IMG/VR virus record: IMGVR_UViG_2690316210_000010
Span: 1 to 23,122 of that record
Reading direction: 5' to 3' (one strand)
Source: a virus
Lineage: Duplodnaviria > Heunggongvirae > Uroviricota > Caudoviricetes
DNA: 23,122 nucleotides
Shown piece by piece: positions 6,147-22,986 of this stretch. Position 1 is the first letter of the stretch, and every line of letters begins with the position of its first letter. The translations under genes were made by a program, and so were the position numbers. Below the pieces are notes generated by a model. It was not told the DNA's origin. It searched no databases and was given only the letters and a program-made list of their open reading frames with translations.

Positions 6147-6178
6147 ATGCATTGGTAACACATCACATAGGGCGGATT

Positions 6179-6442: not shown

Positions 6443-6864
6443 AAATCAAGCATGAACACATCCGCATGGCGATGAAAGCCTGGGCGCATCCGGACGGTGA
6501 AAAAGTTCCGGCAGCTGAAATAACCAGGGTTTATTTCGAACTGGGAATGACGTTTCCGGTTCTGCATAACGACAGCAAGCACAACACGCTTTATCTCAAC
6601 ACCCAAAAGATTTTCCGTTGGCTGGATAAAGACACCCCTGACGCTGTTGAAAAAATTCAGGCGTTGTTACCTGCGATCGAAAGGGCAATGCCACCTCCGC
6701 TGGTGGCTCGAATGCGCAGCCACAGTTCAGCTTATTTTCGGGAACTGGTGGAGACGCATGAACGACTGGTGAGAGACGCTGATGATTTTGTCGCAGTGGC
6801 AATCGCCGGTTTCAATCAGATGAACCGTGGTGGCCCGGCAGGAAATGCTGTGGCAGTACATTGA
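6439..6864 (+). CDS. YdaT-like protein (141 aa)
   Basis: MKIKHEHIRMAMKAWAHPDGEK...; position after the Cro/YdaS-like gene and length match Rac YdaT; paralog at 11990..12415. Confidence 0.6.
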   Translation: MKIKHEHIRMAMKAWAHPDGEKVPAAEITRVYFELGMTFPVLHNDSKHNTLYLNTQKIFRWLDKDTPDAVEKIQALLPAIERAMPPPLVARMRSHSSAYFRELVETHERLVRDADDFVAVAIAGFNQMNRGGPAGNAVAVH

Positions 6865-6935
6865 CTGACAATAGCCATATCGAATCGCTCCCGGCAACTC
6901 GTGAGTAAAAAGATTCGGTATCAGAAGAGGTGAGT

Positions 6936-7976: not shown

Positions 7977-7982
7977 TGTGGC

Positions 7983-8729
7983 ATGAAAAACATTGCGGCA
8001 GCCGGGGTTCTTGAACGTATTCACAGACTTGCACCACAGGGGGCGGTTCCACCGTACCGGACGGTGGAGGAGTGGCGGGAATGGCAACTTGCTGAAGGAC
8101 GAAAACGCAGCGAGGAGATTAACCGCCAGAATCGCCAGTTGCGGGTGGAAAAAATCCTGAATCGTTCGGGCATCCAGCCTCTGCACAGCAAATGCTCGTT
8201 TGCGAATTATCAGGTGCAGAACGACGGGCAAAAATACGCGCTGAGCCAGGCCAAATCCATAGCTGACGAACTGATGACCGGGTGCACGAATTTTGTGTTC
8301 AGCGGTAAAACCGGCACCGGGAAAAATCACCTTGCAGCGGCGATGGGTAACTGGCTGATGGCGAAGGGGCGCAGCGTGATTATCGTCACCGTGTCTGATG
8401 TCATGAGCGTGTTGCATGACAGCTACGACAACGGCAAATCCGGTGAAAAATTTTTACAGGAGCTTTGCGGGGTTGATTTGCTGGTCCTGGATGAAATAGG
8501 CATTCAGCGGGAGACGAAAAACGAGCAGGTGGTATTGCACCAGATAATTGATCGCCGGACAGCATCACTGTGCAGTGTCGGGATGTTAACAAACCTGAAT
8601 CATGCCGCAATGAGTACGCTTCTTGGTGAGAGGATTATGGACCGCATGACCATGAACGGTGGTCGATGGGTGACGTTTAACTGGGATAGCTGGCGTTCAA
8701 ATGTCAGCTTTCCGGGAGTTGTGAAGTAA
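7983..8729 (+). CDS. DnaC-like AAA+ helicase loader (YdaV-like, 248 aa)
   Basis: Walker A FSGKTGTGKNHLAAAMG and Walker B DLLVLDEIG; about 97% identical at protein level to 13407..14153. Confidence 0.8.
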   Translation: MKNIAAAGVLERIHRLAPQGAVPPYRTVEEWREWQLAEGRKRSEEINRQNRQLRVEKILNRSGIQPLHSKCSFANYQVQNDGQKYALSQAKSIADELMTGCTNFVFSGKTGTGKNHLAAAMGNWLMAKGRSVIIVTVSDVMSVLHDSYDNGKSGEKFLQELCGVDLLVLDEIGIQRETKNEQVVLHQIIDRRTASLCSVGMLTNLNHAAMSTLLGERIMDRMTMNGGRWVTFNWDSWRSNVSFPGVVK

Positions 8730-9095
8730 TTTTTGTTGAACCATGACAGCGTTCTGTACTTCAGGGGCCAGCTTGTCAAAAGTGACGTTCATCGGATCTG
8801 ATTCAGTCTCAACCGGGACAAAGGAAGCAGACTCCTCATCCCAGCGGTTTTCCTGCATATATTCAGCATCCCAGGAATCGAGGGCAGGGCGGGGTATACC
8901 GGGTTTATCCTCGCAAACAAGAAATTTATAAGCGCAGTCCTGAGCTGCAGGGAATTGCTCCAGAAATTGCCAATGAAATTTTGCGCGTGCGCGACGCTCA
9001 TCACCGGCTTCAATGGCAGTGGCCACCGCAACAGCGCTATCTTCTTTTATGGCCTGTTCATCAGGAATAGCAGCGCAAATAAAGACCTTACTCAT
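8697..9095 (-). CDS. Prophage early-left-operon hypothetical protein (132 aa), possibly YdfE-like by position; 3' end overlaps the P1 DnaC-like gene
   Basis: Minus-strand ORF MSKVFICAAIPDEQAIKEDSAVAVATAIEAGDERRARAKFHWQFLEQFPAAQD...; last ~11 codons lie antisense inside the DnaC-like 3' end, so the C-terminus may be junction-derived. Confidence 0.5.
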   Translation of the reverse strand: MSKVFICAAIPDEQAIKEDSAVAVATAIEAGDERRARAKFHWQFLEQFPAAQDCAYKFLVCEDKPGIPRPALDSWDAEYMQENRWDEESASFVPVETESDPMNVTFDKLAPEVQNAVMVQQKLLHNSRKADI

Positions 9096-9190
9096 TTTGT
9101 TTTAACCTCATTACAGATTTCAGGGTGAACGAATCCCTGCCATTGCTGGCATTTTTAATCCGTTGGTATGGTGTTAATATGGCTGGAAGG

Positions 9191-9379
9191 TTATCCAGCC
9201 GGTGTTTCGTTATTCAGGTACAGCGATACTTTTTTTAGCGGGAGGCATTCACCAGAAATTTTTTGCTCGTCTCTTGCCTGGAGGCAGGATTCTTTACTTG
9301 CATAAATTCCGGTAATCACATTCTGTGATTCACCCGTTATAAGAAAAACCGTCATCATCAGTGCAAATGCTGAAGTCAT
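9191..9379 (-). CDS. Small membrane protein downstream of dicB (YdfD-like)
   Basis: MTSAFALMMTVFLITGESQNVITGIYASKESCLQARDEQKISGECLP...; start overlaps the dicB-like stop (ATGA); paralog of 329..520. Confidence 0.5.
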   Translation of the reverse strand: MTSAFALMMTVFLITGESQNVITGIYASKESCLQARDEQKISGECLPLKKVSLYLNNETPAG

Positions 9380-9564
9380 TGACGTTCTCCGAAAATACCA
9401 AGTTCAAGAAGAGCAATTCGGGAAAGTATGGAATTATCATTGAGCAGATAAGGCTCATATTTCCTCATATTAATGGCATCTTCAGTAAACTCCCGGTTAC
9501 TGAGCAGAACACCAATATCAAAACAACCTTCAGACGTATTAACGTTTGGTAATAACGTTTCCAT
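9376..9564 (-). CDS. dicB: DicB-like cell division inhibitor with a divergent C-terminal half
   Basis: N-terminal 35 aa METLLPNVNTSEGCFDIGVLLSNREFTEDAINMRK resemble DicB; the C-terminal half differs from the P0 copy. Confidence 0.65.
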   Translation of the reverse strand: METLLPNVNTSEGCFDIGVLLSNREFTEDAINMRKYEPYLLNDNSILSRIALLELGIFGERQ

Positions 9565-9742
9565 TATCGCGTCCTCAACAATGAATTTTGTGATGCAGTG
9601 CCTGGTGCCTCCAGGTGACGTTAACCAGTTAACAATTAACGCCGGGTTAGTTGATGCTCGTTACGCCCGTAAAATACCGCCTTACTGCTTTAACTGTTCC
9701 GCGTGCGCATAGCCGCATTCACCGCATCACAAAATTCACTTT

Positions 9743-9800
9743 AAAAAGGGCGGCAGAGCAGTCACGGAGTAAAACTGATACCGCCAAATGTCACCAGAAA
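9743..9800 (-). ncRNA. dicF: DicF sRNA (canonical-type)
   Basis: Minus strand reads UUUCUGGUGACAUUUGGCGGUAUCAGUUUUACUCCGUGACUGCUCUGCCGCCCUUUUU, matching my recollection of E. coli DicF apart from about one base; located between the ydfA-like/variable genes and dicB as in Qin. Confidence 0.8.
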
Positions 9801-10135
9801 ATTGATAACAGAGGGCGTTGTAGCGGGGTTGTCACTTAAGCGTATGGTCAACCTGACAACCCGGTGCATTTTCTGGAGCAATGGAGGAAACCCCAGCCAT
9901 ACTTACCGCCGCGCCATTTCGCGGAGTGCCACAACCGGAAGCGCACGGTCGAACTAAATTTAACGACACCGTACAGAGAGACCAATTTCGCCGTGCGCTT
10001 TCGCGTTATGCCCTGACTTTTCAGGGACATATCCTTTCAGTAAGCTGTCAGTGCCGGATGCTCACCCGTGTCCGGCGCACGCACTCCACCTGACCCGTGG
10101 AGAACTCCTTAATTACCAACCCTCAGGAGGGTGAA

Positions 10136-10414
10136 ATGGATAAAAAGCAAATTGAGGCCCTGCAATCTATTATTGAAGAACAAGATGAAGCTATCAGGAT
10201 TCTTTCATATCGCACTGATATGATACTAAATATGCTTTCTGCATTAACGGCTGCGCTTGGTGGTACAAAAACAAACGTATACCGCGAAGTTGTTATTCAA
10301 CAGATAGATAAATTTGAAAAAACCATACCAGGTATTAATGCTCATCTTGCAGAACAAGAGAAAGACCATGCTCTTATGGCAATTTCTTCAGTAGCTCTCC
10401 CGAAAGTTGAGTAG
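10136..10414 (+). CDS. Hypothetical protein (92 aa) in the P2 variable cassette, antisense to the dicB operon
   Basis: ATG 10136 with AGGAGG Shine-Dalgarno; MDKKQIEALQSIIEEQDEAIRILSYRTD...; unrelated to the P1 gene at 4088..4288; 3' end overlaps the convergent gene by 41 nt. Confidence 0.4.
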   Translation: MDKKQIEALQSIIEEQDEAIRILSYRTDMILNMLSALTAALGGTKTNVYREVVIQQIDKFEKTIPGINAHLAEQEKDHALMAISSVALPKVE

Positions 10415-10787
10415 TTTTAATTGTTGTTTTGAAATAATCACTGCTTTCACATTTGAGTGATTTCATGGCAATCCAAATGCGGGCCTCTGTGCCTGCATTT
10501 GGTTCCAGTTGCTGTAGACGTTTTGCGTCTTCCAAAAGTAAGGCGATAATGTGTTTCAGCTTCTCATCATTTGCTTGATTCTTGTTTTCAGGCGAATTCT
10601 GTCCGCCGAATAGGCGCTTCTCTTCATACAGACCTATAAAGGCACGACGCACGTTACCGGATATAGTATCGATGGTTTCCTTTTCTACGGTACTCAGGTC
10701 AAGAGTCGCCAGTTGAGAGCGAACCACATTCGATGCCATTTCCTGGAATGGTACTGGTAAATCTTTAAATTCCATCGTCAACCTCAT
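10374..10787 (-). CDS. Hypothetical protein (137 aa), P2 variable-cassette gene coupled to the ydfA-like gene
   Basis: Shares only MRLTMEFKDLP with the P1 gene 4257..4634, then diverges completely; start overlaps the upstream stop. Confidence 0.5.
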   Translation of the reverse strand: MRLTMEFKDLPVPFQEMASNVVRSQLATLDLSTVEKETIDTISGNVRRAFIGLYEEKRLFGGQNSPENKNQANDEKLKHIIALLLEDAKRLQQLEPNAGTEARIWIAMKSLKCESSDYFKTTIKTTQLSGELLKKLP

Positions 10788-10939
10788 CAGTCAGTGTTTC
10801 TGGTTAACCAGCGACGCGCGCCAGCTTCAGTTTTAAACGTTTTGCTTCTGGTATACGTCATCGCGGTGAACGTACCGTCCTGGTTGGGGAACACGCCACA
10901 TACCAGAGATTCGCTGTTGCCAAGATCGATAGTATCCAT
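10787..10939 (-). CDS. YdfA/YdaF-like small protein
   Basis: MDTIDLGNSESLVCGVFPNQDGTFTAMTYTRSKTFKTEAGARRWLTRNTD; near-identical to 4634..4786. Confidence 0.6.
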   Translation of the reverse strand: MDTIDLGNSESLVCGVFPNQDGTFTAMTYTRSKTFKTEAGARRWLTRNTD

Positions 10940-11124
10940 GCTGACCTCATTTCCCCTTAACGCCGGGGTAGCGGAACAAAAACCTGCTGCATAGTTATTA
11001 AAGTTGAACCCTGCCGTCATGTTCTTACGCCTCGGGCTGGCTACTTAACCCCTGACCACTGCCTGGTAACTCGAAGTATTGCCCTGCATTCTGTGGGGCG
11101 GGGTGGGTTGGTATGAAAAGAAGG

Positions 11125-11167
11125 ATACCCATAGGTATTTAAAAAGTAAATACCCATGGGTAAATTT
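11125..11167. promoter_or_regulatory. OL-like operators with candidate leftward early promoter (P2)
   Basis: Palindromes ATACCCATAGGTAT (11125-11138) and TACCCATGGGTA (11151-11162); on the minus strand a TTTACC / 16-17 bp / TTAAAT promoter-like arrangement overlaps them. Confidence 0.45.
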
Positions 11168-11204
11168 TTGCGGTGTCTTAACTGGTGACTAGTTGTTTGG
11201 TGAG

Positions 11205-11624
11205 CTATGATGCGTTTTGTGCTTTCTTTTTACGGATTTCTTCGTAGATCATATTGTAATACTGTTTTTTCTCTTCAAGAGTTTTTAATAATTTATCCGC
11301 TTCACTTTCTGGCAGTTCGTCTAAGAGATCTAAAAAAATACGTTGTCGTGGCGTTAGAACCCTTGTTTCATAACTGGAGGCTGTGTTCGTTGATGATGAA
11401 ACGATACCATCCATCCATCCCCGGGGTAACCCAAAGGACTCTTCGATAATCTCCACCATATCATCAGCGATCCGTTTTTTTCCCTTTTTCCCCTCTGGGT
11501 ACAACATTCTTGATACATAAGAAGGCTCGCGCCCGATCTTTCTGGCCACGTTAACCGCTTTACCATCGCATTTCTCATCACGAATTTTGATGAGTTGCTG
11601 TCGTCTAAATTCATATTTGTCCAT
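11205..11624 (-). CDS. HTH repressor of the P2 immunity region (RacR/DicA-like position)
   Basis: Start chosen at MDKYEFRRQQLIKIRDEKCDGKAVNVARKIGREPSYVSRML... (HTH); divergent from the Cro-like gene; flanked by operator-like repeats. Confidence 0.6.
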   Translation of the reverse strand: MDKYEFRRQQLIKIRDEKCDGKAVNVARKIGREPSYVSRMLYPEGKKGKKRIADDMVEIIEESFGLPRGWMDGIVSSSTNTASSYETRVLTPRQRIFLDLLDELPESEADKLLKTLEEKKQYYNMIYEEIRKKKAQNAS

Positions 11625-11701
11625 AGGTAAATAATAGATGCGATTACCGCAAGGTAAACAACCTGTGGGTATTGACATTTGTTTACCTGTGGGTATTCTT
11701 T
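11623..11701. promoter_or_regulatory. OR-like operators and candidate rightward promoter for the P2 Cro-like gene
   Basis: Repeated TGGGTA-containing half-sites (ACCTGTGGGTAT twice, CATAGGTAAAT); -35 TTGACA (11673-11678), 16-bp spacer, -10 TATTCT (11695-11700). Confidence 0.45.
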
Positions 11702-11724
11702 GCTGTGTTTACTAAGGAGTAGCT

Positions 11725-12006
11725 ATGGAAGAATTAAGAATATTTCTCAATTCTCTTTCGTCAGATGAACAGCGTATGTTTGCATGCGAGTGTGGTACCA
11801 GCATCGGTTATCTAAGAAAGGCATTGAGTAAAGGTCAAGTGTTAGGGGCATCGTTATGTGTCCTTATTGAGCGAGCCAGTAATGGTGAAGTTACACGTCA
11901 GCAACTAAGGCCTTTTGATTGGATGAATATTTGGCCCGAGCTGGAAGATACCAAAACGTTAACACAACCACTTTCTAGGAGCTTGATTCATGAAAATCAA
12001 GCATGA
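11725..12006 (+). CDS. Cro/YdaS-like HTH regulator (P2)
   Basis: AAGGAG Shine-Dalgarno; ...ECGTSIGYLRKALSKGQ...TRQQLRPFDW...; 3' end overlaps the YdaT-like start. Confidence 0.6.
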   Translation: MEELRIFLNSLSSDEQRMFACECGTSIGYLRKALSKGQVLGASLCVLIERASNGEVTRQQLRPFDWMNIWPELEDTKTLTQPLSRSLIHENQA

Positions 12007-12415
12007 ACACATCCGCATGGCGATGAATGCCTGGGCGCGTCCTGATGGCGAAAAAGTTCCAGCAGCTGGAATAACCCAGGCTTATTTTGAGTTGGGTATG
12101 ACGTTCCCAGAACTGTATGACGACAGCCATCCGGAAGCCCTGGCTCGCAATACCCAGAAAATTTTCCGCTGGGTAGAGAAAGACACCCCTGATGCTGTTG
12201 AAAAAATGCAGGCTCTGTTACCGGCGATCGAAAAGGCGATGCCGCCTTTGCTGGTGGCCCGTATGCGCAGCCACAGTTCTGAATATTACCGTGAGATCGT
12301 CGAACGGAGGGATCGGCTGGTGAAGGATGTCGATGATTTTGTTGCGTCAGCGGTTGTTTTGTATGACCAGATGAATCGCGGCGGCCCGGCAGGGAATGCT
12401 GTGGTGATGCACTAA
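11990..12415 (+). CDS. YdaT-like protein (141 aa, P2)
   Basis: MKIKHEHIRMAMNAWARPDGEK...; paralog of 6439..6864. Confidence 0.6.
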   Translation: MKIKHEHIRMAMNAWARPDGEKVPAAGITQAYFELGMTFPELYDDSHPEALARNTQKIFRWVEKDTPDAVEKMQALLPAIEKAMPPLLVARMRSHSSEYYREIVERRDRLVKDVDDFVASAVVLYDQMNRGGPAGNAVVMH

Positions 12416-12437
12416 AAGCACGGTGTTCGGGGGTTTT

Positions 12438-13400
12438 ATGAGCAGCAAGCTTCATGGTCTTGTCTGGGAAGGGTGCGCCTTCACCGGCATGATCTTATCC
12501 AGGGTGGCGGTTATGGCCCGTCTTGCAGACTACAGCAATGACGAGGGCGTGTCATGGCCTGCCATTGAAACTATCCGGCGTCAGATCGGTGCAAGAAGTG
12601 AATCCACAGTGAAATCGGCTATTGCAGAACTGGCGAAAGAGGGCTGGCTGACGAAGGAAGAGCGTAAGGTCGGTGGGCGTAATGTAAGCAATATCTATCG
12701 GCTTAATGTGGAAAAACTCGAAGCAGCTGCGGCGGCGGCGCGTGAGTCATATAAACCGAAAAGAAAAATTAGCCCGGCAAAAAATGACCCGTTAACAGTT
12801 GACCCGTCAAATATTGACCCCTCAACGGTTGACCCGTCAAATTTTGATGGATCAACTGTTGATAAAAAACTGCCGATTAGGGGGGCGATGATTGACCCCG
12901 ATCCGTCAGTATTAAAACCTGATCCGTCAGATAAAAGATCTTCTTGTCCGGACGCTTCGCAACCGGACCCGCAGACGGCTGAACAGGATTTTTTAACCCG
13001 ACACCCTGACGCGGTTGTGTTCAGTGCGAAAAAACGCCAGTGGGGAAGTCAGGAAGATTTGGTGTGCGCACAGTGGATCTGGGGACGAATCGTGAGTCTT
13101 TACGAGCAGGCGGCCAGCTATGATGGCGAGATCACTAGACCGAAAGAACCCAACTGGACAGCATGGGCCAATGACGTTCGCACAATGCGGATGCTGGATG
13201 GCAGAACTCACAGACAAATTTGTGAAATGTTTGGGCGTCTCCAGCGGGATTCGTTCTGGGTAAAAAACATCATGAGTCCGGCAAAACTCCGGGAAAAATG
13301 GGATGAACTGGTTATCCGCCTGGGGCGTTCGCCTGCGCAGCGTTGCGTGAATCACATTTCTGAACCGGACACTGAAATACCGCCGGGATTCAGGGGGTGA
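12438..13400 (+). CDS. Replication initiator (lambda O-like) with an N-terminal winged-helix domain and embedded iterons
   Basis: ATG 12438; N-terminal HTH-like region (...VSWPAIETIRRQIGARSESTVKSAIAELAKEGWL...); TTGACCCGTCAA iterons in a linker; last 20 aa identical to the P1 initiator. Confidence 0.6.
   Translation: MSSKLHGLVWEGCAFTGMILSRVAVMARLADYSNDEGVSWPAIETIRRQIGARSESTVKSAIAELAKEGWLTKEERKVGGRNVSNIYRLNVEKLEAAAAAARESYKPKRKISPAKNDPLTVDPSNIDPSTVDPSNFDGSTVDKKLPIRGAMIDPDPSVLKPDPSDKRSSCPDASQPDPQTAEQDFLTRHPDAVVFSAKKRQWGSQEDLVCAQWIWGRIVSLYEQAASYDGEITRPKEPNWTAWANDVRTMRMLDGRTHRQICEMFGRLQRDSFWVKNIMSPAKLREKWDELVIRLGRSPAQRCVNHISEPDTEIPPGFRG
12783..12860. repeat. Origin iterons: four to five TTGACCCGTCAA-like repeats at 15-bp spacing inside the P2 O-like gene
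   Basis: TGACCCGTTAAC (12783), TTGACCCGTCAA (12798), TTGACCCCTCAA (12813), TTGACCCGTCAA (12828), then a degenerate TTGATGGATCAA. Confidence 0.6.
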
Positions 13401-13406
13401 CGTGTC

Positions 13407-14153
13407 ATGAAAAACATTGCGGCAGTTGGGGTTCTTGAACGTATTCGCAGACTTGCACCACAGGGGTCGGTTCCACCGTACCGGACGGTGGAGGAGTGGC
13501 GGGAATGGCAACTTGCTGAAGGACGAAAACGCAGCGAGGAGATTAACCGCCAGAATCGCCAGTTGCGGGTGGAAAAAATCCTGAATCGTTCGGGCATCCA
13601 GCCTCTGCACAGCAAATGCTCGTTTGCAAATTATCAGGTGCAGAACGACGGGCAAAAATACGCGCTGAGCCAGGCCAAATCCATAGCTGACGAACTGATG
13701 ACCGGGTGCACGAATTTTGTGTTCAGCGGTAAAACCGGCACCGGGAAAAATCACCTTGCAGCGGCGATGGGCAACCGGCTGATGGTGAAGGGGCGCAGCG
13801 TGATTATCGTCACCGTGTCTGACGTCATGAGCGTGTTGCATGACAGCTACGACAACGGCAAATCCGGTGAAAAATTTTTACAGGAGCTTTGCGGGGTTGA
13901 TTTGCTGGTCCTGGATGAAATAGGCGTTCAGCGGGAGACGAAAAACGAGCAGGTGGTATTGCACCAGATAATTGATCGCCGGACAGCATCACTGTGCAGT
14001 GTCGGGATGTTAACAAACCTGAATCATGCCGCAATGAGTACGCTTCTTGGTGAGAGGATTATGGACCGCATGACCATGAACGGTGGTCGATGGGTGACGT
14101 TTAACTGGGATAGCTGGCGTCCAAATGTCAGCAATATGAGGGTTGTGAAGTAA
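13407..14153 (+). CDS. DnaC-like AAA+ helicase loader (YdaV-like, P2)
   Basis: Walker A and B motifs; near-identical to 7983..8729. Confidence 0.8.
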   Translation: MKNIAAVGVLERIRRLAPQGSVPPYRTVEEWREWQLAEGRKRSEEINRQNRQLRVEKILNRSGIQPLHSKCSFANYQVQNDGQKYALSQAKSIADELMTGCTNFVFSGKTGTGKNHLAAAMGNRLMVKGRSVIIVTVSDVMSVLHDSYDNGKSGEKFLQELCGVDLLVLDEIGVQRETKNEQVVLHQIIDRRTASLCSVGMLTNLNHAAMSTLLGERIMDRMTMNGGRWVTFNWDSWRPNVSNMRVVK

Positions 14154-14174
14154 TTTTGTCCGGAGGAAATTTTA

Positions 14175-14945
14175 ATGGAAACCGTATCTGACGCACTGAA
14201 AGCACTGAAAAAAGCCTCTTCACATGTGGTGGCAGCTCGCCTTGGAATCAGTCGTGAAGAGGCTGTCAACGAGCTGTGGGAACTCAAAAGAAAAGGCGTC
14301 GTTGATAAAACTGGTCACACCTGGTTTCTGGCTGGCGAAGGTGAATCCCGGGTAACCGAAGAGCGGCCAGTAAAATCTGAAGCACAGGATATGCTGACCG
14401 GGGAGGTCGAACAAAAAGTTACCGCAGACATGATGATTGAGTTTATCGGTCAGGATGGGGCTAAAACGTGTGAGGAACTGGCGGGTAAGTTCGGTGTCAG
14501 TACTCGCAAGGTTGCTTCCACGCTGGCGGTGGTAACCGCAACGGGGCGGCTGGCACGCGTTAATCAGAACGGTAAATTTCGTTACTGCATGCCGGGCGAT
14601 AATTTACCAGCAGAGCCGAAAGCCGCGCTGGTAACGGAAAGTGATGGTAAGGCCTTTCCTCAGCCAGCAGGTGCTGCGTTACCAGTCCGGGAAGCCGCAA
14701 CACAGGAAGAAATTAAAACAGAAACTGTGGCGGACATTGTGCAGCCGTTGCCATCGTTTACCGAAACGCAAGCAGATGAGCTGATTTTTCCGTCCCTTCG
14801 CAGGGCAAACCTGGCGCTGCGCAGGGCGAAAAGTGATGTTCAGAAGTGGGAGCGAGTCTGCGCCGCGCTGCGGGAGCTGAACAAGCACCGGGATATTGTT
14901 CGACAGATTACTGATTCTTCCCGCCGTGTTGTATCGGAAAAGTGA
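14175..14945 (+). CDS. Hypothetical protein with two winged-helix-like segments (possibly DUF1627-type)
   Basis: GGAGG Shine-Dalgarno; two repeats of an HTH-like segment (...AARLGISREEAVNELWELKRKG... and ...AGKFGVSTRKVASTLAVVTATG...). Family assignment is from memory and uncertain. Confidence 0.4.
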   Translation: METVSDALKALKKASSHVVAARLGISREEAVNELWELKRKGVVDKTGHTWFLAGEGESRVTEERPVKSEAQDMLTGEVEQKVTADMMIEFIGQDGAKTCEELAGKFGVSTRKVASTLAVVTATGRLARVNQNGKFRYCMPGDNLPAEPKAALVTESDGKAFPQPAGAALPVREAATQEEIKTETVADIVQPLPSFTETQADELIFPSLRRANLALRRAKSDVQKWERVCAALRELNKHRDIVRQITDSSRRVVSEK

Positions 14946-14960
14946 TTGCCGGAGGCGCTT

Positions 14961-15386
14961 ATGGCAAAAGTATTTACACAAGAAGAGCGGGAAAAAATTA
15001 AAGGGCAGGTTGTTGAACTTGTACGTCTGAGCGGTCGCGAGACGTTGCGGCAACTGGAAGCCAAGACAGGTGCGACAAGATATCTGATGAGTGTTCTCGC
15101 CAGAGAGCTGGTTGCCAGTGGCGATGTATACAACTCTGGTTACGGGTTATTCCCGTCTGAACAGGCGCGTAAGGACTGGCAAAATGCTCGCAAAAAACTC
15201 TCAAGGGCAAAGGTGAAGAAACCTGCAGTGGTTGATCCGGACCTTATCTGGTCGTTACCAGACGGCGAAATACGCCGCTACGACAGGCGCCTGAATATAA
15301 TCTGTCGCGAGTGCCGGAAGAGCGAAGCTATGCAGCGTGTACTGGCATTTTATCAAGGAAATGTTAGGTATTTTAGACGTTACTAG
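14961..15386 (+). CDS. Hypothetical protein (142 aa)
   Basis: ATG 14961 with GGAGG Shine-Dalgarno 5 nt upstream; no recognised family. Confidence 0.4.
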   Translation: MAKVFTQEEREKIKGQVVELVRLSGRETLRQLEAKTGATRYLMSVLARELVASGDVYNSGYGLFPSEQARKDWQNARKKLSRAKVKKPAVVDPDLIWSLPDGEIRRYDRRLNIICRECRKSEAMQRVLAFYQGNVRYFRRY

Positions 15387-15539
15387 ATTAAAGAGCATTA
15401 GTTCAGATGTGAATTGACATTTTCATGGCGCAGGGTAGAGCCAGCGTGGTTGTCCGCTTTGCGTCAAAACCAGATATTACCAGATTTAGACATATATTCC
15501 CGATAGCCCTGCTCTGATGCTACACTCTGTGCTATTTTC

Positions 15540-16226
15540 ATGACCCCAATAAAAATATTTATGACTATTGCTGATTTCAAACGGCCTAAATTGGAGCTCC
15601 CAAACGGGGCAAACAAACTACTACTGCACTCTTGCTGTGCTCCATGTTCCGGTGAAGTGATGGAGGCGCTTCAGGCCTCGGGAATCGACTACACCATCTT
15701 TTTCTACAACCCGAACATTCATCCTCAGAAAGAGTATTTAATTCGTAAGGATGAAAATATTCGCTTTGCTGAACAACACGGCGTGCCGTTTATCGATGCT
15801 GATTACGACACCGACAACTGGTTTGAACGTGCCAAAGGAATGGAATGGGAGCCTGAGAGGGGGATCCGTTGTACCATGTGTTTTGACATGCGTTTTGAGC
15901 GGACAGCGTTGTACGCTGCTGAAAATGGTTTCAGTGTGATCAGCAGTTCACTGGGCATTTCACGCTGGAAAAATATGCAGCAGGTTAACGACTGTGGGCG
16001 GCGAGCCGTCGCGCATTATCCGGGCATGGTGTACTGGGATTATAACTGGCGCAAGCAGGGCGGCTCGTCCCGTATGATTGAAATCAGCAAGCGCGAAAAA
16101 TTCTATCAGCAGGAATATTGTGGCTGTGTGTATTCTCTGCGCGATACCAATCTACACCGCAAATCTCAGGGACGCCCTCTTATCAAAATTGGTCAACTCC
16201 ACTACGGTAAAGAAGAGAAGGAGTGA
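15540..16226 (+). CDS. QueH-like protein (DUF208, epoxyqueuosine reductase family)
   Basis: N-terminal [11 protein letters not shown] motif plus further conserved Cys/His/Asp residues resemble DUF208/QueH; no obvious Shine-Dalgarno, so start is uncertain. Confidence 0.55.
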
Positions 16227-16453
16227 TTTTATGGGGCACCTTTCTGATTGATTTCATATTGGCGAGGTAAGTAGAATGACTGCGGGTGCTTGAGGCTATC
16301 TGCTTCAGGCATGAACACCAAAAGGCAGATAGAGAAAAGCCCCAGTTAACATTACGCGTCCGGCAAGACGCTTAACATTAATCTGAGGCCAATTTCATGC
16401 TTTGCACATGTAGGTTAGCCTCTTACATGCCGAAAGGCAAGGAGAAGCAGGCT

Positions 16454-16609
16454 ATGAAGCAGCAAAAGGCGATGTTAATCGCCCTGATCGTCATCTGTTT
16501 AACCGTCATAGTGACGGCACTGGTAACGAGGAAAGACCTCTGTGAGGTACGAATCCGAACCGGCCAGACGGAGGTCGCTGTCTTCGTAGACTACGAATCC
16601 AGGAAGTAA
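16454..16609 (+). CDS. hokD: Hok-family type I toxin (HokD/RelF-like); overlapping upstream Mok-like frame begins at 16397
   Basis: MKQQKAMLIALIVICLTVIVTALVTRKDLCEVRIRTGQTEVAVF... matches Hok/RelF; GGAG Shine-Dalgarno. Confidence 0.75.
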   Translation: MKQQKAMLIALIVICLTVIVTALVTRKDLCEVRIRTGQTEVAVFVDYESRK

Positions 16610-16617
16610 GAGTGACC

Positions 16618-16730
16618 GGGCGGGGAGCTGATCCCATCCCCGCCCACCTCTGATGTGTCAGGCATCCTCAACGCACCCGCACTTAACCCGCCCATCGCTG
16701 TGATCTCTCAGCGTTTCGGCGGGTTTTTTG
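16618..16730 (+). terminator. hok mRNA 3' structured region ending in a rho-independent terminator
   Basis: 9-bp stem GGGCGGGGA/TCCCCGCCC (16618-16645), then CCCGCC...GGCGGG followed by TTTTTTG (16688-16730). Confidence 0.5.
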
Positions 16731-16858
16731 TTGTTTATTTCCGGTGAATTTGATTCGCGCACCTTCGCAGATAGAATCGACTCACTTAAGTAGCGCGCAG
16801 GGAGAAGAGGGATGGACCCCGAACAGGGGAGAGCTATTTATCTGGAAGGATTCTGAAG

Positions 16859-17146
16859 ATGAAAATCGAAGAATTGCGTGAAATTTTTAGTGAAAATGGC
16901 CTCTATGCTGTGCGCGTTGAGAATGGAGCGATTGTCAGCCATTGCCGCATTAGATGTTTGCAATCTCAACAAAGGAAGAGCGGTGCTGTGTTATTTTATT
17001 TTTGTAATGGACTTCTGACGGACGGTTTTATTTTGCGTGAGGACGAATTTGTCACATCATTACGGGTTTTGAAAGAGATTGGTTTTAAGGCTGGTTTTCT
17101 GCTTTTGCTGAAGAATAAACTCATCTACAATCTTGAGCAGGATTGA
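16859..17146 (+). CDS. Hypothetical protein (95 aa) at the Rem-equivalent position
   Basis: ATG 16859 with GGAAGGA Shine-Dalgarno; sits between hok and the DUF1367 gene as rem does in Qin; no sequence recognition. Confidence 0.4.
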   Translation: MKIEELREIFSENGLYAVRVENGAIVSHCRIRCLQSQQRKSGAVLFYFCNGLLTDGFILREDEFVTSLRVLKEIGFKAGFLLLLKNKLIYNLEQD

Positions 17147-17184
17147 ACTCCTGCTGTGTAACACCGTGCCACCGGAGAAAGCCG

Positions 17185-17784
17185 ATGGCACATATACAAC
17201 TGGTCAAACAAACCTCTTCCGGATTACTTCTCCCGGCGACGCCGGAGAGTTGCGATTTTCTGCATCAAATCAAAATAGGTGAGTGGATACACGCAGACTT
17301 TAAGCGTGTGTGTAACTACGCATTCCACAAGCGTTTTTTCAAACTCCTGCAACTGGGTTTCGATTACTGGACTCCGGTCGGTGGGGCGATCACGCCTCGC
17401 GAACGAAAACTGGTGTCCGGTTTCGTTGATTACCTGTGTGAATCAGTAGGCCGGGAACATACGCCAGCTCTGAGCGAAGCCGCAGAGCAATATCTGAATA
17501 CAGTTGCGACACGCAGAACCAGTGATACGGCATTGCTAAAGTCGTTTGAGGCTTTCCGCGAGTGGGTAGCCATTCAGGCCGGATTTTACACCGAGCATTT
17601 TTATCCGGACGGTAGCCGTGGGTGTCGGGCGAAATCTATCGCGTTTGCGAATATGGACGAAACCGAGTTTCAGCAGGTTTATAAATCTGTTCTGAATGTG
17701 CTGTGGAACTGGATTCTGTTCCGTAAATTTTCCTCTCCGGAACAAGTCGAAAATGTGGCCGCGCAGCTGCTGGAGTTTGCGTAA
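17185..17784 (+). CDS. DUF1367-like prophage protein, tandem copy A
   Basis: GGAG Shine-Dalgarno; MAHIQLVKQTSSGLLLPATPESCDFLHQIK...; stop overlaps the next gene start (TAATG). Family assignment from memory. Confidence 0.55.
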   Translation: MAHIQLVKQTSSGLLLPATPESCDFLHQIKIGEWIHADFKRVCNYAFHKRFFKLLQLGFDYWTPVGGAITPRERKLVSGFVDYLCESVGREHTPALSEAAEQYLNTVATRRTSDTALLKSFEAFREWVAIQAGFYTEHFYPDGSRGCRAKSIAFANMDETEFQQVYKSVLNVLWNWILFRKFSSPEQVENVAAQLLEFA

Positions 17785-18074
17785 TGGTGGATTTACGTAA
17801 AGCGGCGCGGGGGCAGATGTGCACCGTCAGAATTCCTGGCTACTGCAATCACGATCCGGAAACGTCTGTGCTGGCGCATTACCGACTGGCGGGAACGTGC
17901 GGAACAGCGATAAAGCCACACGATATGCAGGCAGCGATTGCCTGTAGCTCGTGCCACGATTTAATCGACGGGCGGGTAAAAACCAGCGATTACACCAAAG
18001 AAGAATTACGCCTGATGCATGCAGAAGGTGTTTTTCGCACACAAGAAATCTGGAGAAAGGAGGGATATTTATGA
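17784..18074 (+). CDS. YbcO-like (DUF1364) zinc-binding protein, copy A
   Basis: 96 aa with four paired Cys (C..C...C..C) and position before Q as in DLP12 ybcO; identical in copies B and C. Confidence 0.55.
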
Positions 18075-18448
18075 TTTACCCAACGAATACAGGAAAAAGC
18101 GGAGAACACCTTCGTCTCACCACGCTGGAAAGTGTCTGGATTCAGGGAAAACTACGTATGTGGGGGCGCTGGTCGTATATTGGTGGCGGTAAGACGGGGA
18201 ATATGTTTAACCTGATGTTGACCTCTAAAAAGCTGACAAAAACGGCAATTAACGAGGCGCTCCGGAGGATGAAAAAAGCAGGTCTGAACAAGTCTGAACT
18301 TGCTGCCGCCATGAAGCAGATTAAAGAACTCCAGCGCCTGCTCGGCAAGAAAACGATGGAAAATGAACTCCTCAAAGAAGCCGTTGAATATGGACGGGCA
18401 AAAAAGTGGATAGCGCACGCGCCCTTATTGCCCGGGGATGGGGAGTAA
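18071..18448 (+). pseudogene. Truncated Q-like antiterminator (first ~74 aa) fused in frame to the C-terminal part of IS2 InsC
   Basis: [16 protein letters not shown]...NKSEL, then [48 protein letters not shown] (IS2 InsC C-terminus); junction at the shared 10-mer TCTGAACTTG (18293-18302). Confidence 0.75.
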
Positions 18449-19322
18449 GCTTAGTCAGCCGTTGTCTCCGGGTGTCGCGTGCGCAGTTGCACGTCATTCT
18501 CAGACGAACCGATGACTGGATGGATGGCCGCCGCAGTCGTCACACTGATGATACGGATGTGCTTCTCCGTATACACCATGTTATCGGAGAGCTGCCCACG
18601 TATGGTTATCGTCGGGTATGGGCGCTGCTTCGCAGACAGGCAGAACTTGATGGTATGCCTGCGATCAATGCCAAACGTGTTTACCGGATCATGCGCCAGA
18701 ATGCGCTGTTGCTTGAGCGAAAACCTGCTGTACCGCCATCGAAACGGGCACATACAGGCAGAGTGGCCGTGAAAGAAAGCAATCAGCGATGGTGCTCTGA
18801 CGGGTTCGAGTTCTGCTGTGATAACGGAGAGAGACTGCGTGTCACGTTCGCGCTGGACTGCTGTGATCGTGAGGCACTGCACTGGGCGGTGACTACCGGC
18901 GGCTTCAACAGTGAAACAGTACAGGACGTCATGCTGGGAGCGGTGGAACGCCGCTTCGGCAACGATCTTCCGTCGTCTCCAGTGGAGTGGCTGACGGATA
19001 ATGGTTCATGCTACCGGGCTAATGAAACACGCCAGTTCGCCCGGATGTTGGGACTTGAACCGAAGAACACGGCGGTGCGGAGTCCGGAGAGTAACGGAAT
19101 AGCAGAGAGCTTCGTGAAAACGATAAAGCGTGACTACATCAGTATCATGCCCAAACCAGACGGGTTAACGGCAGCAAAGAACCTTGCAGAGGCGTTCGAG
19201 CATTATAACGAATGGCATCCGCATAGTGCGCTGGGTTATCGCTCGCCACGGGAATATCTGCGGCAGCGGGCTTGTAATGGGTTAAGTGATAACAGATGTC
19301 TGGAAATATAGGGGCAAATCCA
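18293..19322 (+). mobile_element. IS2, 5'-truncated (mid-insC to right end ...GGGGCAAATCCA)
   Basis: insC 3' part, insD and the right terminus are recognisable; the left ~300 bp of IS2 is absent. Confidence 0.85.
18406..19311 (+). CDS. insD: IS2 transposase InsD (natively expressed as an InsCD frameshift product)
   Basis: 301-aa translation ...[32 protein letters not shown]... with DDE motifs. Confidence 0.85.
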
Positions 19323-19364
19323 ACGGGCTGAACACCCATTCTACTGCGCCAGCGGAGAACTACG

Positions 19365-19964
19365 ATGGCGCATATACAACTGATCAAACAAACCTCTTCC
19401 GGATTACTTCTCCCGGCGACGCCGGAGAGTTGCGATTTTCTGCATCAAATCAAAATAGGTGAGTGGATACACGCAGACTTTAAGCGTGTGTGTAACTACG
19501 CATTCCACAAGCGTTTTTTCAAACTCCTGCAACTGGGATTCGATTACTGGACTCCGGTCGGTGGGGCGATCACGCCTCGCGAACGAGAACTGCTGTCTGG
19601 TTTCGTTGATTACCTGTGCGAATCAGTAGGTCGGGAACATACGCCAGCTCTGAGCGAAGCCGCAGAGCAATATCTGAATACAGTTGCGACACGCAGAACC
19701 AGTGATACGGCATTGCTAAAGTCGTTTGAGGCTTTCCGCGAGTGGGTAGCCATTCAGGCCGGATTTTACACCGAGCATTTTTATCCGGACGGTAGCCGTG
19801 GGTGTCGGGCGAAATCTATCGCGTTTGCGAATATGGACGAAACCGAGTTTCAGCAGGTTTATAAATCTGTTCTGAATGTGCTGTGGAACTGGATTCTGTT
19901 CCGTAAATTTTCCTCTCCGGAACAAGTCGAAAATGTGGCCGCGCAGCTGCTGGAGTTTGCGTAA
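19365..19964 (+). CDS. DUF1367-like prophage protein, copy B (mosaic of A-type and C-type sequence)
   Basis: About 99% identical to copy A, but carries C-type substitutions at the 5' end (LIKQ, RERELLSGF). Confidence 0.55.
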   Translation: MAHIQLIKQTSSGLLLPATPESCDFLHQIKIGEWIHADFKRVCNYAFHKRFFKLLQLGFDYWTPVGGAITPRERELLSGFVDYLCESVGREHTPALSEAAEQYLNTVATRRTSDTALLKSFEAFREWVAIQAGFYTEHFYPDGSRGCRAKSIAFANMDETEFQQVYKSVLNVLWNWILFRKFSSPEQVENVAAQLLEFA

Positions 19965-20254
19965 TGGTGGATTTACGTAAAGCGGCGCGGGGGCAGATGT
20001 GCACCGTCAGAATTCCTGGCTACTGCAATCACGATCCGGAAACGTCTGTGCTGGCGCATTACCGACTGGCGGGAACGTGCGGAACAGCGATAAAGCCACA
20101 CGATATGCAGGCAGCGATTGCCTGTAGCTCGTGCCACGATTTAATCGACGGGCGGGTAAAAACCAGCGATTACACCAAAGAAGAATTACGCCTGATGCAT
20201 GCAGAAGGTGTTTTTCGCACACAAGAAATCTGGAGAAAGGAGGGATATTTATGA
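19964..20254 (+). CDS. YbcO-like (DUF1364) protein, copy B
   Basis: Identical translation to copies A and C. Confidence 0.55.
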
Positions 20255-21492
20255 TTTACCCAACGAATACAGGAAAAAGCGGAGAACACCTTCGTCTCAC
20301 CACGCTGGAAAGTGTCTGGATTCAGGGAAAACTACGTATGTGGGGGCGCTGGTCGTATATTGGTGGCGGTAAGACGGGGAATATGTTTAACCTGATGTTG
20401 ACCTCTAAAAAGCTGACAAAAACGGCAATTAACGAGGCGCTCCGGAGGATGAAAAAAGCAGGTCTGAACAAGTCTGAACTTGCTGCCGCCATGAAGCAGA
20501 TTAAAGAACTCCAGCGCCTGCTCGGCAAGAAAACGATGGAAAATGAACTCCTCAAAGAAGCCGTTGAATATGGACGGGCAAAAAAGTGGATAAACGCACG
20601 CGCCCTTATTGCCCGGGGATGGGGAGTAAGCTTAGTCAGCCGTTGTCTCCGGGTGTCGCGTGCGCAGTTGCACGTCATTCTCAGACGAACCGATGACTGG
20701 ATGGATGGCCGCCGCAGTCGTCACACTGATGATACGGATGTGCTTCTCCGTATACACCATGTTATCGGAGAGCTGCCCACGTATGGTTATCGTCGGGTAT
20801 GGGCGCTGCTTCGCAGACAGGCAGAACTTGATGGTATGCCTGCGATCAATGCCAAACGTGTTTACCGGATCATGCGCCAGAATGCGCTGTTGCTTGAGCG
20901 AAAACCTGCTGTACCGCCATCGAAACGGGCACATACAGGCAGAGTGGCCGTGAAAGAAAGCAATCAGCGATGGTGCTCTGACGGGTTCGAGTTCTGCTGT
21001 GATAACGGAGAGAGACTGCGTGTCACGTTCGCGCTGGACTGCTGTGATCGTGAGGCACTGCACTGGGCGGTGACTACCGGCGGCTTCAACAGTGAAACAG
21101 TACAGGACGTCATGCTGGGAGCGGTGGAACGCCGCTTCGGCAACGATCTTCCGTCGTCTCCAGTGGAGTGGCTGACGGATAATGGTTCATGCTACCGGGC
21201 TAATGAAACACGCCAGTTCGCCCGGATGTTGGGACTTGAACCGAAGAACACGGCGGTGCGGAGTCCGGAGAGTAACGGAATAGCAGAGAGCTTCGTGAAA
21301 ACGATAAAGCGTGACTACATCAGTATCATGCCCAAACCAGACGGGTTAACGGCAGCAAAGAACCTTGCAGAGGCGTTCGAGCATTATAACGAATGGCATC
21401 CGCATAGTGCGCTGGGTTATCGCTCGCCACGGGAATATCTGCGGCAGCGGGCTTGTAATGGGTTAAGTGATAACAGATGTCTGGAAATATAG
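20251..21492 (+). pseudogene. Q N-terminal fragment fused in frame to IS2 InsC C-terminus and InsD (single 413-aa chimeric ORF)
   Basis: Same Q::IS2 junction as copy A (20473-20482), plus one extra nucleotide near 20593 (TGGATAAACGCACG versus TGGATAGCGCACG in copy A) that merges the InsC and InsD frames. Confidence 0.7.
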
Positions 21493-21503
21493 GGGCAAAT
21501 CCA
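20473..21503 (+). mobile_element. IS2, 5'-truncated, second copy
   Basis: Same structure and right end as 18293..19322. Confidence 0.85.
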
Positions 21504-21545
21504 ACGGGCTGAACACCCATTCTACTGCGCCAGCGGAGAACTACG

Positions 21546-22145
21546 ATGGCGCATATACAACTGATCAAACAAACCTCTTCCGGATTACTTCTCCCGGCGA
21601 CGCCGGAGAGTTGCGATTTTCTGCATCAAATCAAAACAGGTGAGTGGATACACGCAGACTTTAAGCGTGTGCGTAACTACGCATTCCACAAGCGTTTTTT
21701 CAAACTCCTGCAACTGGGATTCGATTACTGGACTCCGGTCGGTGGGGCGATCACGCCTCGCGAACGAGAACTGCTGTCTGGTTTCGTTGATTACCTGTGC
21801 GAATCAGTAGGTCGGGAACATACGCCAGCTCTGAGCGAAGCCGCAGAGCAATATCTGAATACAGTTGCGACACGCAGAACCCGGGATACGGCATTGCTAA
21901 AGTCGTTTGAGGCTTTTCGCGAGTGGGTAACCATTCAGGCTGGATTTTACACCGAACATTTTTATCCGGACGGTAGCCGCGGGCGTCGGGCAAAATCCAT
22001 CGCTTTTGCGAATATGGACGAAACCGAGTTTCAGCAGGTTTATAAATCTGTTCTGAATGTGCTGTGGAACTGGATTCTGTTCCGTAAATTTTCCTCTCCG
22101 GAACAAGTCGAAAATGTGGCCGCGCAGCTGCTGGAGTTTGCGTAA
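21546..22145 (+). CDS. DUF1367-like prophage protein, copy C (most diverged)
   Basis: Several substitutions relative to A and B (KTGEW, RVRNY, TRDTALL, WVTIQ, RGRRAKS). Confidence 0.55.
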   Translation: MAHIQLIKQTSSGLLLPATPESCDFLHQIKTGEWIHADFKRVRNYAFHKRFFKLLQLGFDYWTPVGGAITPRERELLSGFVDYLCESVGREHTPALSEAAEQYLNTVATRRTRDTALLKSFEAFREWVTIQAGFYTEHFYPDGSRGRRAKSIAFANMDETEFQQVYKSVLNVLWNWILFRKFSSPEQVENVAAQLLEFA

Positions 22146-22435
22146 TGGTGGATTTACGTAAAGCGGCGCGGGGGCAGATGTGCACCGTCAGAATTCCTGG
22201 CTACTGCAATCACGATCCGGAAACGTCTGTGCTGGCGCATTACCGACTGGCGGGAACGTGCGGAACAGCGATAAAGCCACACGATATGCAGGCAGCGATT
22301 GCCTGTAGCTCGTGCCACGATTTAATCGACGGGCGGGTAAAAACCAGCGATTACACCAAAGAAGAATTACGCCTGATGCATGCAGAAGGTGTTTTTCGCA
22401 CACAAGAAATCTGGAGAAAGGAGGGATATTTATGA
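22145..22435 (+). CDS. YbcO-like (DUF1364) protein, copy C
   Basis: Identical translation to copies A and B. Confidence 0.55.
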   Translation: MVDLRKAARGQMCTVRIPGYCNHDPETSVLAHYRLAGTCGTAIKPHDMQAAIACSSCHDLIDGRVKTSDYTKEELRLMHAEGVFRTQEIWRKEGYL

Positions 22436-22986
22436 TTTACCCAACGAATACAGGAAAAAGCGGAGAACACCTTCGTCTCACCACGCTGGAAAGTGTCTGG
22501 ATTCAGGGAAAACTACGTATGTGGGGGCGCTGGTCGTATATTGGTGGCGGTAAGACGGGGAATATGTTTAACCTGATGTTGACCTCTAAAAAGCTGACAA
22601 AAACGGCAATTAACGAGGCGCTCCGGAGGATGAAAAAAGCAGGTCTGAACAAGTCTGAACTTGAGGCTTTTTTGCGGGATATGATTAACGGTAAGCAAAA
22701 GAGCTGGCTGGCGCATTGTACTGATGCAGAGGCGTTATGTATTGATCGGGTCATAAGTGAGGTGCTGGCAGAGCATCCAGGATTGATTAGCGTCCTTCGG
22801 CAACGGTATGAGGGGCGGGGGATGACCAAACGCAAAATGGCTGAACTGCTGAATGATGCACACCCGAAATGGAGTTTAAGAACCTGTGAAAGACGCATTG
22901 AGCATTGGCTAAAGGTGGCAGAATTTATTTTGTACAAACCAATGGTTATGGCTTTTGGTATAGAGAAAAAAGTTATTGCTTTTTGA
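22432..22986 (+). CDS. Putative late-gene antiterminator Q-like protein, intact copy (184 aa)
   Basis: ATG 22432 with AGGAGG Shine-Dalgarno; position after the YbcO-like gene and before a terminator-containing intergenic region; assignment is by synteny, not by recognised sequence. Confidence 0.5.
   Translation: MIYPTNTGKSGEHLRLTTLESVWIQGKLRMWGRWSYIGGGKTGNMFNLMLTSKKLTKTAINEALRRMKKAGLNKSELEAFLRDMINGKQKSWLAHCTDAEALCIDRVISEVLAEHPGLISVLRQRYEGRGMTKRKMAELLNDAHPKWSLRTCERRIEHWLKVAEFILYKPMVMAFGIEKKVIAF

Follow-up and report, generated by a model that had tools for sequence, protein, structure and literature searches.

The reduction of epoxyqueuosine (oQ) to queuosine (Q) in tRNA is assigned to two types of enzyme. 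QueG is a cobalamin/[4Fe-4S] enzyme (PMC5175355; PMC4646009), whereas QueH is described as cobalamin-independent (PMC5615194; PMC6461909), and proteins of its family contain a [4Fe-4S] cluster together with an adjacent iron, and no cobalamin (PMC13443448, PMC6461909, PMC5615194). Staphylococcus aureus possesses both enzymes, and their differing expression was ascribed by the authors to cofactor availability (PMC13443448). The full queuosine pathway is present in Escherichia coli (PMC9508795), and the main survey of viral queuosine-pathway genes reported no homologues of QueA, QueG or QueH in the viruses analysed (PMC6884629). Here, we describe a QueH gene in a stretch of DNA of 23,122 nucleotides from a tailed virus of the class Caudoviricetes (IMG/VR record IMGVR_UViG_2690316210_000010, positions 1 to 23,122; hereafter ‘the window’), where it is located between the genes of a lambdoid prophage. 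We consider it fairly probable that the gene and its immediate 5′ region form a cassette encoding a functional QueH, which would act as a cobalamin-independent back-up for finishing Q in the tRNA of the lysogen's host. This reading draws on the family of the protein, its intact catalytic residues and predicted fold, the purifying selection acting on it, the limits of the cassette, its accessory distribution and its coexistence with queG.

A QueH family protein and its reading frame

On the + strand of the window, an open reading frame (ORF) of 228 amino acids, read directly from the sequence, extends from an ATG at 15540 to a stop codon ending at 16226. These are exactly the coordinates at which a first-pass annotation, made from the sequence alone, had proposed a QueH-like (DUF208) gene, and the 11-residue motif on which that proposal leaned is present in the translation at residues 27-37 (nucleotides 15618-15650). 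The comparison with the DUF208/QueH profile that it had recommended returned a significant and near full-profile match: residues 27-201 were aligned with positions 1-174 of the 175 positions of Pfam PF02677 (QueH, formerly DUF208) with a score of 220.6 bits (gathering score 23.5) and an expect value (E) of 1.9e-65. Among proteins of known structure, the crystallised QueH from Thermotoga maritima was matched by sequence at E 5e-22. The identification as such is not new, since RefSeq already names the protein ‘epoxyqueuosine reductase QueH’; no NCBIfam model matched the ORF, and the RefSeq name must therefore derive from another rule.

A homologue search among 1.84 billion cluster representatives yielded 4755 matches at E ≤ 0.001, and the protein was aligned with 30-35 diverse family members, in sets of 31 sequences and 36 members. 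Residues that are invariant in the family are all present, namely C32, C33, C36, N59, E65, R69, E106 and R110, along with C111, C114, K144, Q191, C194, G195, C196 and S199. The cysteines fall into three motifs, which in this family coordinate the metal centres and are encoded on the + strand: CCAPC (Cys32, Cys33, Pro35 and Cys36 in the numbering of the 228-residue form; 15633-15647), CxxC (Cys111 and Cys114, preceded by the invariant Glu106 and Arg110; 15870-15881) and CGC (Cys194, Gly195 and Cys196; 16119-16127). Cys32 and Cys33 are invariant, and so is Cys36 in 36 diverse QueH proteins; in the 31-sequence alignment the sole exception at this position is Asp13 of the T. maritima protein. Judged from these alignments, CCAPC is the majority form in the QueH family and Asp at position 36 is the exception. 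The Protein Data Bank (PDB) contains C9S and D13N mutants at exactly these motif positions of T. maritima QueH, which suggests that the residues were deemed important by the crystallographers.

The AlphaFold2 model, built on the family alignment, had a predicted local distance difference test score (pLDDT) of 94.3 and a predicted template modelling score (pTM) of 0.90. In a Foldseek search it was superimposed on T. maritima QueH (PDB 7LC5) with E 2.7e-14, a target-normalised template modelling score (TM) of 0.92 and a root mean square deviation of 1.2 Å over 179 columns. The next matches, to TtuA/TilS-type PP-loop folds, were ten orders of magnitude weaker (E ~1e-4). With the profile match, the PDB match, the retained invariant residues and the predicted fold all in agreement, the QueH/DUF208 assignment of the first-pass annotation is upheld: the protein almost certainly belongs to the QueH family and very likely has oQ reductase activity.

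In comparison with T. maritima QueH (PDB 7LC5, 7LC7 and 9DEU), the protein shows the same full-length domain, the same CC..C, CxxC and CGC cysteines and the same fold, but the identity is only 31-33% and Cys36 occupies the place of Asp13. As in other gammaproteobacterial QueH, about 19 extra residues are found at the N-terminus and about 25 at the C-terminus. The window copy furthermore differs in being carried by a prophage, in a host that already possesses QueG. Two segments at the termini are common to gammaproteobacterial QueH, the N-terminal RPKLxLP (window 15582-15617, residues 15-26) and the C-terminal G.PPIKIG..FYG (window 16152-16226, residues 205-228). Both are missing from T. maritima QueH and both were modelled here with high confidence; they may represent tRNA-binding additions.

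The first-pass annotation had also raised the possibility of a different DUF208 function. A protein of QueH fold might, for example, act on an epoxide or related group of a free nucleoside, a base or DNA, and not on oQ34-tRNA. Cys36, standing where T. maritima has the aspartate mutated by the crystallographers, and the terminal extensions of this clade, which T. maritima QueH lacks, could be counted in its favour. However, CCAPC being the family norm, the cysteine provides no positive evidence for another substrate, and many gammaproteobacteria have the same extensions in their syntenic chromosomal queH. The phage clusters for 7-deazaguanine DNA modification (DpdA with FolE, QueD, QueE and QueC) likewise consist of phage-borne queuosine-pathway genes, but they use the early pathway and a DNA transglycosylase; neither a DpdA/TGT-like transglycosylase nor preQ0 synthesis genes were found in a Pfam scan of the 20 largest ORFs of the 23-kb window. 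A substrate other than oQ34-tRNA is, in our opinion, very unlikely indeed.

The start proposed for the gene did not stand as firmly as its family. The frame is indeed open from 15540, but the true start is probably seven codons further in, at ATG 15561 (Met8 of the 228-residue form), which is invariant across the aligned copies and corresponds to the 221-residue form used in the RefSeq annotation. ATG 15540 is not conserved, with ATT, ACA or other triplets in its place in the copies from Enterobacter, Scandinavium, Klebsiella plasmids and Salmonella plasmids, and residues 1-10 of the 228-residue model have low confidence (pLDDT 52); on these two grounds it was ruled out in favour of 15561. The QueH coding sequence (CDS) is thus probably 15561-16226 on the + strand, 221 amino acids with the stop codon included, in keeping with the PF02677 match, the AlphaFold2 and Foldseek results and the substitution ratios given below, and the seven codons that precede it in frame (15540-15560, + strand) are probably leader and not coding.

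A further candidate, the internal ATG 15660 (Met41 of the 228-residue ORF), is preceded by a Shine-Dalgarno-like GGTGA, and many automatic gene calls, among them the PHROG profile and several cluster representatives, begin at this residue. It was rejected: gene calls from residue 41 are devoid of the catalytic CCAPC motif, and codons 8-40, which encode invariant cysteines, are under purifying selection, with ratios of nonsynonymous to synonymous polymorphism (pN/pS) of 0.04-0.21 against nine other copies, from which it follows that they are translated. In PHROGs, the ORF is assigned to phrog_3217, annotated as ‘unknown function’, and this label is probably due to internal-ATG calls that drop CCAPC. 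In practical terms, phage catalogues probably miss the function of the family for the same reason.

A mobile cassette in a lambdoid cargo site

Pfam and Rfam scans place QueH in the early-right operon of a lambdoid prophage of the Rac/YdaS-YdaT type. The order of genes is a divergent repressor-like gene, YdaS, YdaT, an HTH_36 O-like protein, an IstB/DnaC-like ATPase, DUF1627, DUF977 (LygF), QueH, hok/sok, DUF1367 and YbcO, all of them on the + strand save the repressor-like gene, and the annotations of E. coli IHE3034 and CE10 show the same arrangement. The prophage location suggested by the first-pass annotation is borne out by these flanks and by 80 IMG/VR viral contigs, where Hok usually comes after QueH and, among the 73 contigs that extend far enough upstream, 66 have DUF977 before it.

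Homology between the window and phage mEp460_ev081 ends at 15467 and resumes at 16229, giving junctions at 15467/15468 and 16228/16229. Together with the other copies, these junctions define a QueH cargo cassette of ~760 bp at 15468-16228 (+ strand). Homology to the chromosomal copy of Enterobacter hormaechei spans 15496-16233 and that to Scandinavium 15511-16230, and in the Shigella prophage copy the similarity is lost upstream of 15490. Overall, the nucleotide homology to non-phage copies, at ~15496-16233, comprises ~65 nt of 5′ sequence and the CDS, and ends at the stop codon.

The left border of the cargo site is the DUF977/LygF (‘Ren-like’) gene (14946-15386, + strand; Pfam PF06163, E 7.4e-28), and the right one is the hok/sok regulatory RNA region (16284-16459, + strand), recognised by the Rfam sok model RF01794 with 117 bits (gathering score 59; E 1.2e-27). 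Between lygF and hok, lambdoid phages have a hot spot for cargo. In mEp460_ev081 it contains a different insert of 2.18 kb (321-2500) with a gene for the 449-residue defence protein PD-T7-1 (PADLOC E 4e-157), in phage Tritos a PDC-S15 candidate defence gene (4020-5354; E 1e-98), in phage Evi a regulator and an acetyltransferase (3848-5061), in phage PhiR42_1 a methyltransferase (3781-4137) and in Rac-SA53 ead-type genes. The QueH cassette resembles the morons and cargo hot spots of lambdoid prophages in being a discrete, swappable insert with sharp junctions that is absent from sister phages. It differs from them in that the cargo is a housekeeping-type tRNA-modification enzyme, and not a defence, toxin or virulence gene, and in having no detected terminator and a promoter that is only inferred. 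In phage HannyBb, an additional ~373 bp (4788-5159) lie between the QueH stop codon and hok/sok, and QueH is preceded upstream by a short ‘DNA methyltransferase’ fragment, so that the site can hold more than one insert.

The identical junctions around PD-T7-1, the PDC-S15 candidate and the PhiR42_1 methyltransferase would fit an understanding of QueH itself as cargo for conflict, protecting against superinfecting phages or toxins either by the anticodon state of Q-tRNAs or by way of a 7-deazaguanine compound of other phages; a preprint also reportedly ties Q status to phage resistance in Shewanella. Yet the same hot spot houses non-defence genes, and the plasmid copies described below do not adjoin defence genes. 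A search of PADLOC-DB 2.0 gave no match for QueH, DUF977, orf95 or DUF1367, and faint HTH-type matches only for DUF1627; membership of QueH in a known defence system was ruled out on this account. Moreover, the protein has all the catalytic residues of the housekeeping enzyme and shows 78-86% identity to the syntenic chromosomal queH products of other Enterobacterales, which points to the ordinary substrate. We therefore regard a role in such conflicts as quite improbable.

A conserved 5′ block, composed of a promoter-like region and a short leader (15496-15560, + strand), travels with the gene. Its sequence ATTCCCGATAGC..GCTCTGATGCTACACT is common to the copies in the prophage, on Klebsiella and Salmonella IncF plasmids and in the E. 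hormaechei chromosome, whereas the DNA further upstream is unrelated among prophage, plasmid and chromosomal copies. Within the block, an extended -10-like element of putative promoter function, TGcTACACT (15518-15526, + strand), lies 35 nt upstream of ATG 15561. The sequence ATGCTACA is invariant in the alignment of copies (A3), and the block with TGCTACACT recurs in the prophage, on the IncF plasmids and in Enterobacter. In all Escherichia/Shigella copies GCTACA precedes the conserved ATG by 39-43 nt, and it lies at the same distance in those of Enterobacter, Scandinavium, Kluyvera, one Erwinia sp. (L016) and the Klebsiella and Salmonella plasmids. From the resemblance to the -10 consensus, and from its conservation despite unrelated upstream DNA, we infer that the gene carries its own promoter.

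Two other features of this region were noted. A second extended -10-like string, TGcTATTTT (15530-15538), is situated just upstream of ATG 15540 and is confined to the Escherichia/Shigella phage copies; it may act as a promoter element in place of the first or besides it, or have arisen by chance. The string GCUACAC is reminiscent of preQ1-I riboswitches, and a preQ1 or cobalamin riboswitch was considered and discarded, as a permissive Rfam scan of 15300-16700 returned only the downstream sok.

Among 5426 complete E. coli genomes, the QueH CDS was found in 995 (18%), with 985 of the 995 near full length. The copies occupy 1014 chromosomal and three plasmid places, with at most two per genome, and bear the label ‘epoxyqueuosine reductase QueH’ wherever annotation was listed; QueH-positive isolates listed include ST95, ST131 and O157:H7. 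By comparison, queG was present in all 5426 genomes, in line with the earlier expectation that QueH lies outside the E. coli core and QueG is the usual enzyme. QueH-positive strains consequently all possess both enzymes, and on paper QueH is always redundant. Of 50,697 deposited phage genomes, only that of the temperate phage HannyBb has this allele, where it is labelled hypothetical, and the other matches come from short pieces of metagenomes or from very large contigs whose viral nature is doubtful. A relative is encoded on 189 IMG/VR contigs.

The protein is ~99.6-100% identical to the copies in Escherichia albertii NBRC 107761 and in E. coli prophages (IHE3034 and CE10), and 98% identical to that of Shigella flexneri. 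In species-representative genomes, the E. albertii and S. flexneri copies are in phage context, and those of Enterobacter, Kluyvera and Scandinavium, 86-91% identical, are in varied contexts. Chromosomal queH of Erwinia, Serratia, Rahnella, Pectobacterium, Proteus, Providencia and others encode proteins of the same length with 78-86% identity. They reside in genus-conserved neighbourhoods, in contrast to the window copy, which is flanked by phage genes and shared by the 18% of E. coli genomes given above; several of the Erwinia genes have, like the window copy, a TACACT/TACAAT-like box at a similar upstream distance.

Matches were also obtained in 233 plasmid records, 99 of them from Klebsiella. 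The best 25 of the 233 show 90-99.5% protein identity and originate mostly from Klebsiella, with others from E. coli, Salmonella and Enterobacter. The two plasmids inspected are conjugative IncF plasmids, and copies are found on the Klebsiella pneumoniae IncFIB/IncFII plasmid p90CM2-172k (locus L165, 7001-7669) and on a Salmonella IncFII plasmid (locus L166, 6001-6669). The plasmid cassettes adjoin insertion sequence (IS) elements, TonB fragments or fec genes. Because related copies are spread over prophages, plasmids and chromosomes, this QueH clade is a mobile accessory gene of Enterobacteriaceae with ordinary chromosomal queH as its ancestors, and no invention of phages.

Pairwise ratios of nonsynonymous to synonymous substitution rates (dN/dS) were 0.02-0.10 against 20 other copies, where dS was unsaturated. 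Between phage-borne alleles, the ratio was 0.098 for HannyBb, where 13 nonsynonymous differences stand against 30 synonymous ones, and 0.069 for Shigella. As these low values include phage-borne alleles, the protein is maintained during its residence on phages.

Proposed completion of queuosine without cobalamin

The encoded protein would act as a cobalamin-independent iron-sulfur epoxyqueuosine reductase, converting oQ to Q at position 34 of tRNA-Asp, tRNA-Asn, tRNA-His and tRNA-Tyr. The predicted reaction and substrate, oQ34-tRNA to Q34-tRNA, are the same as those of QueG (YjeS) (PMC5175355, PMC9508795), to which it has no sequence or fold relationship; QueG requires cobalamin and two [4Fe-4S] clusters and is a core enzyme. 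The mobile ~760-bp cassette, consisting of the 5′ region with its -10-like element and the CDS, occupies the lygF/DUF977-hok/sok cargo site in the orientation of the early-right operon of Escherichia/Shigella lambdoid prophages. With the -10-like element as a promoter and the gene expressed in E. coli lysogens, the lysogen could complete Q synthesis when cobalamin is unavailable, a lysogenic-conversion (‘moron’) function exerted on host translation. Members of the QueH family have reportedly been shown by genetics to be able to replace QueG, and Frey (1988) is reported to have found that E. coli and Salmonella depend on cobamide for reducing oQ. E. coli has no de novo cobalamin synthesis and QueG needs this cofactor, so the most likely benefit of the cassette would be the completion of Q without cobalamin.

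A number of points weigh against this reading. Data on activity, transcripts or protein for this clade were not found in searchable sources. A functional difference between oQ-tRNA and Q-tRNA is not established, which makes the selective value of the last step uncertain, and deletion of queG in E. coli was without growth effect under one set of conditions (PMC11841063). QueH is itself an iron-sulfur enzyme and would for this reason bring no gain under iron limitation or oxidative stress. The gut, for its part, usually provides corrinoids, and the presence of queG, tgt and queA in the host of this window is assumed. As to expression, a two-hexamer sigma-70 scan called no promoter upstream of the gene and found no -35 match; no terminator-like site was detected in 14900-16900, and folding of the 3′ flank was no better than that of shuffled sequence (z = 0.02). 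Expression in a repressed lysogen would thus depend only on the conserved 9-nt element. Finally, a Shine-Dalgarno-like sequence is absent before both ATG 15540 and ATG 15561; the weak ribosome-binding context pointed out in the first-pass annotation is real, and the same caution applies to the start 21 nt further in.

The missing translation signal and the absence of any called promoter or terminator, taken together with queG in every E. coli genome examined and the heavy IS-mediated rearrangement of the prophage region in the window, would fit a neutral or near-neutral passenger, that is, of a working enzyme that is irrelevant beside QueG and has become common only through common prophages. 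Several observations disagree with such indifference. The dN/dS values stay at 0.07-0.10 even among phage-borne alleles, 985 of the 995 E. coli copies are near full length, and in the window the gene is still intact within a decayed prophage. Furthermore, the gene was acquired independently by prophages with different immunity/replication modules, by IncF plasmids and by Enterobacter chromosomes. Hence, we find the passenger explanation rather unlikely.

The position of QueH allows yet another interpretation, that of a function in the lytic cycle. Transcribed from pR as a delayed-early gene, QueH would complete Q on host tRNAs to the advantage of phage NAU/NAC codons or of frameshift and readthrough sites. 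The gene lies within the early-right operon and points the same way, with the replication genes on one side and the nin/Q region on the other; it is not set apart from its neighbours by a terminator, it keeps a fixed place in the 80 viral contigs, and many of these prophages have tRNA genes downstream of Q. Nevertheless, the same cassette with its 5′ block occurs on IncF plasmids and Enterobacter chromosomes, which have no lytic programme, and the site is one for swap-in cargo outside the conserved phage core. Most lambdoid phages do without the gene, the allele being present in one of the 50,697 deposited phage genomes, and the prophage tRNAs seen (Ile, Arg, Lys, Thr and Gly) are not Q-tRNAs. 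A lytic role is consequently judged unlikely, and the back-up function in the lysogen remains the reading that we prefer.

Queuosine influences how fast and how accurately four amino-acid codon families are decoded, and has been connected with stress and metal phenotypes in E. coli (PMC9508795). A full-text search of the literature found no paper on prophage- or plasmid-borne QueH in Enterobacteriaceae. The protein itself is ordinary for its family; its setting is moderately surprising and lends itself easily to tests. Should the cassette be active, queuosine could be finished without vitamin B12 in about one E. coli strain out of five, a capacity not predictable from work based on K-12, and the gene would clearly exemplify the transfer of a tRNA-modification enzyme between hosts by a temperate phage and by conjugative plasmids. 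A broader proposal, which we consider doubtful, sees in the cassette a horizontally circulating ‘translation-tuning’ cargo of Enterobacteriaceae that is distributed by lambdoid prophages and IncF plasmids among hosts all endowed with QueG, is expressed from its own promoter in lysogens, uncouples the final Q step from cobalamin and so changes NAU/NAC decoding in cobalamin-poor niches (urine, blood). The translation of virulence genes there would then possibly be altered as well. In a stronger form of this proposal, the placement in a defence hot spot may reflect conflicts between phages, or with toxins, that are fought via anticodon modification.

The surrounding prophage region

Directly 3′ of QueH, at 16284-16609, the window contains a complete hok/sok type I toxin-antitoxin module, in which the reading frame of the Hok/Gef-family toxin (mok/hok) occupies 16397-16609 on the + strand (Pfam PF01848, E 9.8e-23). 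The hok/sok segment is common to Stx phages without QueH, which share just that flank with the window.

The window is a rearranged prophage region, rich in IS elements. It was contiguous in no complete E. coli genome, the best cover being 45%. At 17168-22663, a unit of 2180/2181 bp is present in about three head-to-tail copies, 17168-20482 being 99.2% identical to 19348-22663. Each of the 2.18-kb repeats includes DUF1367, YbcO, the 5′ portion of a DUF1133 Q-like antiterminator gene and one IS3-family element, and the array is either the outcome of IS-mediated tandem amplification or an assembly artefact.

In the left part of the window (1-14157), a prophage immunity/replication module at 5567-8733 is followed in tandem by a related one at 11205-14157; their DnaC-like genes are 97% and their YdaT genes 78% identical. 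An IS1 (2129-2701) and an IS3-family element (2737-3555) are enclosed by 291-bp direct repeats (1513-1803 and 3599-3889; 99.3% identity), and the region 1-731 resembles 8861-9590 at 75%.

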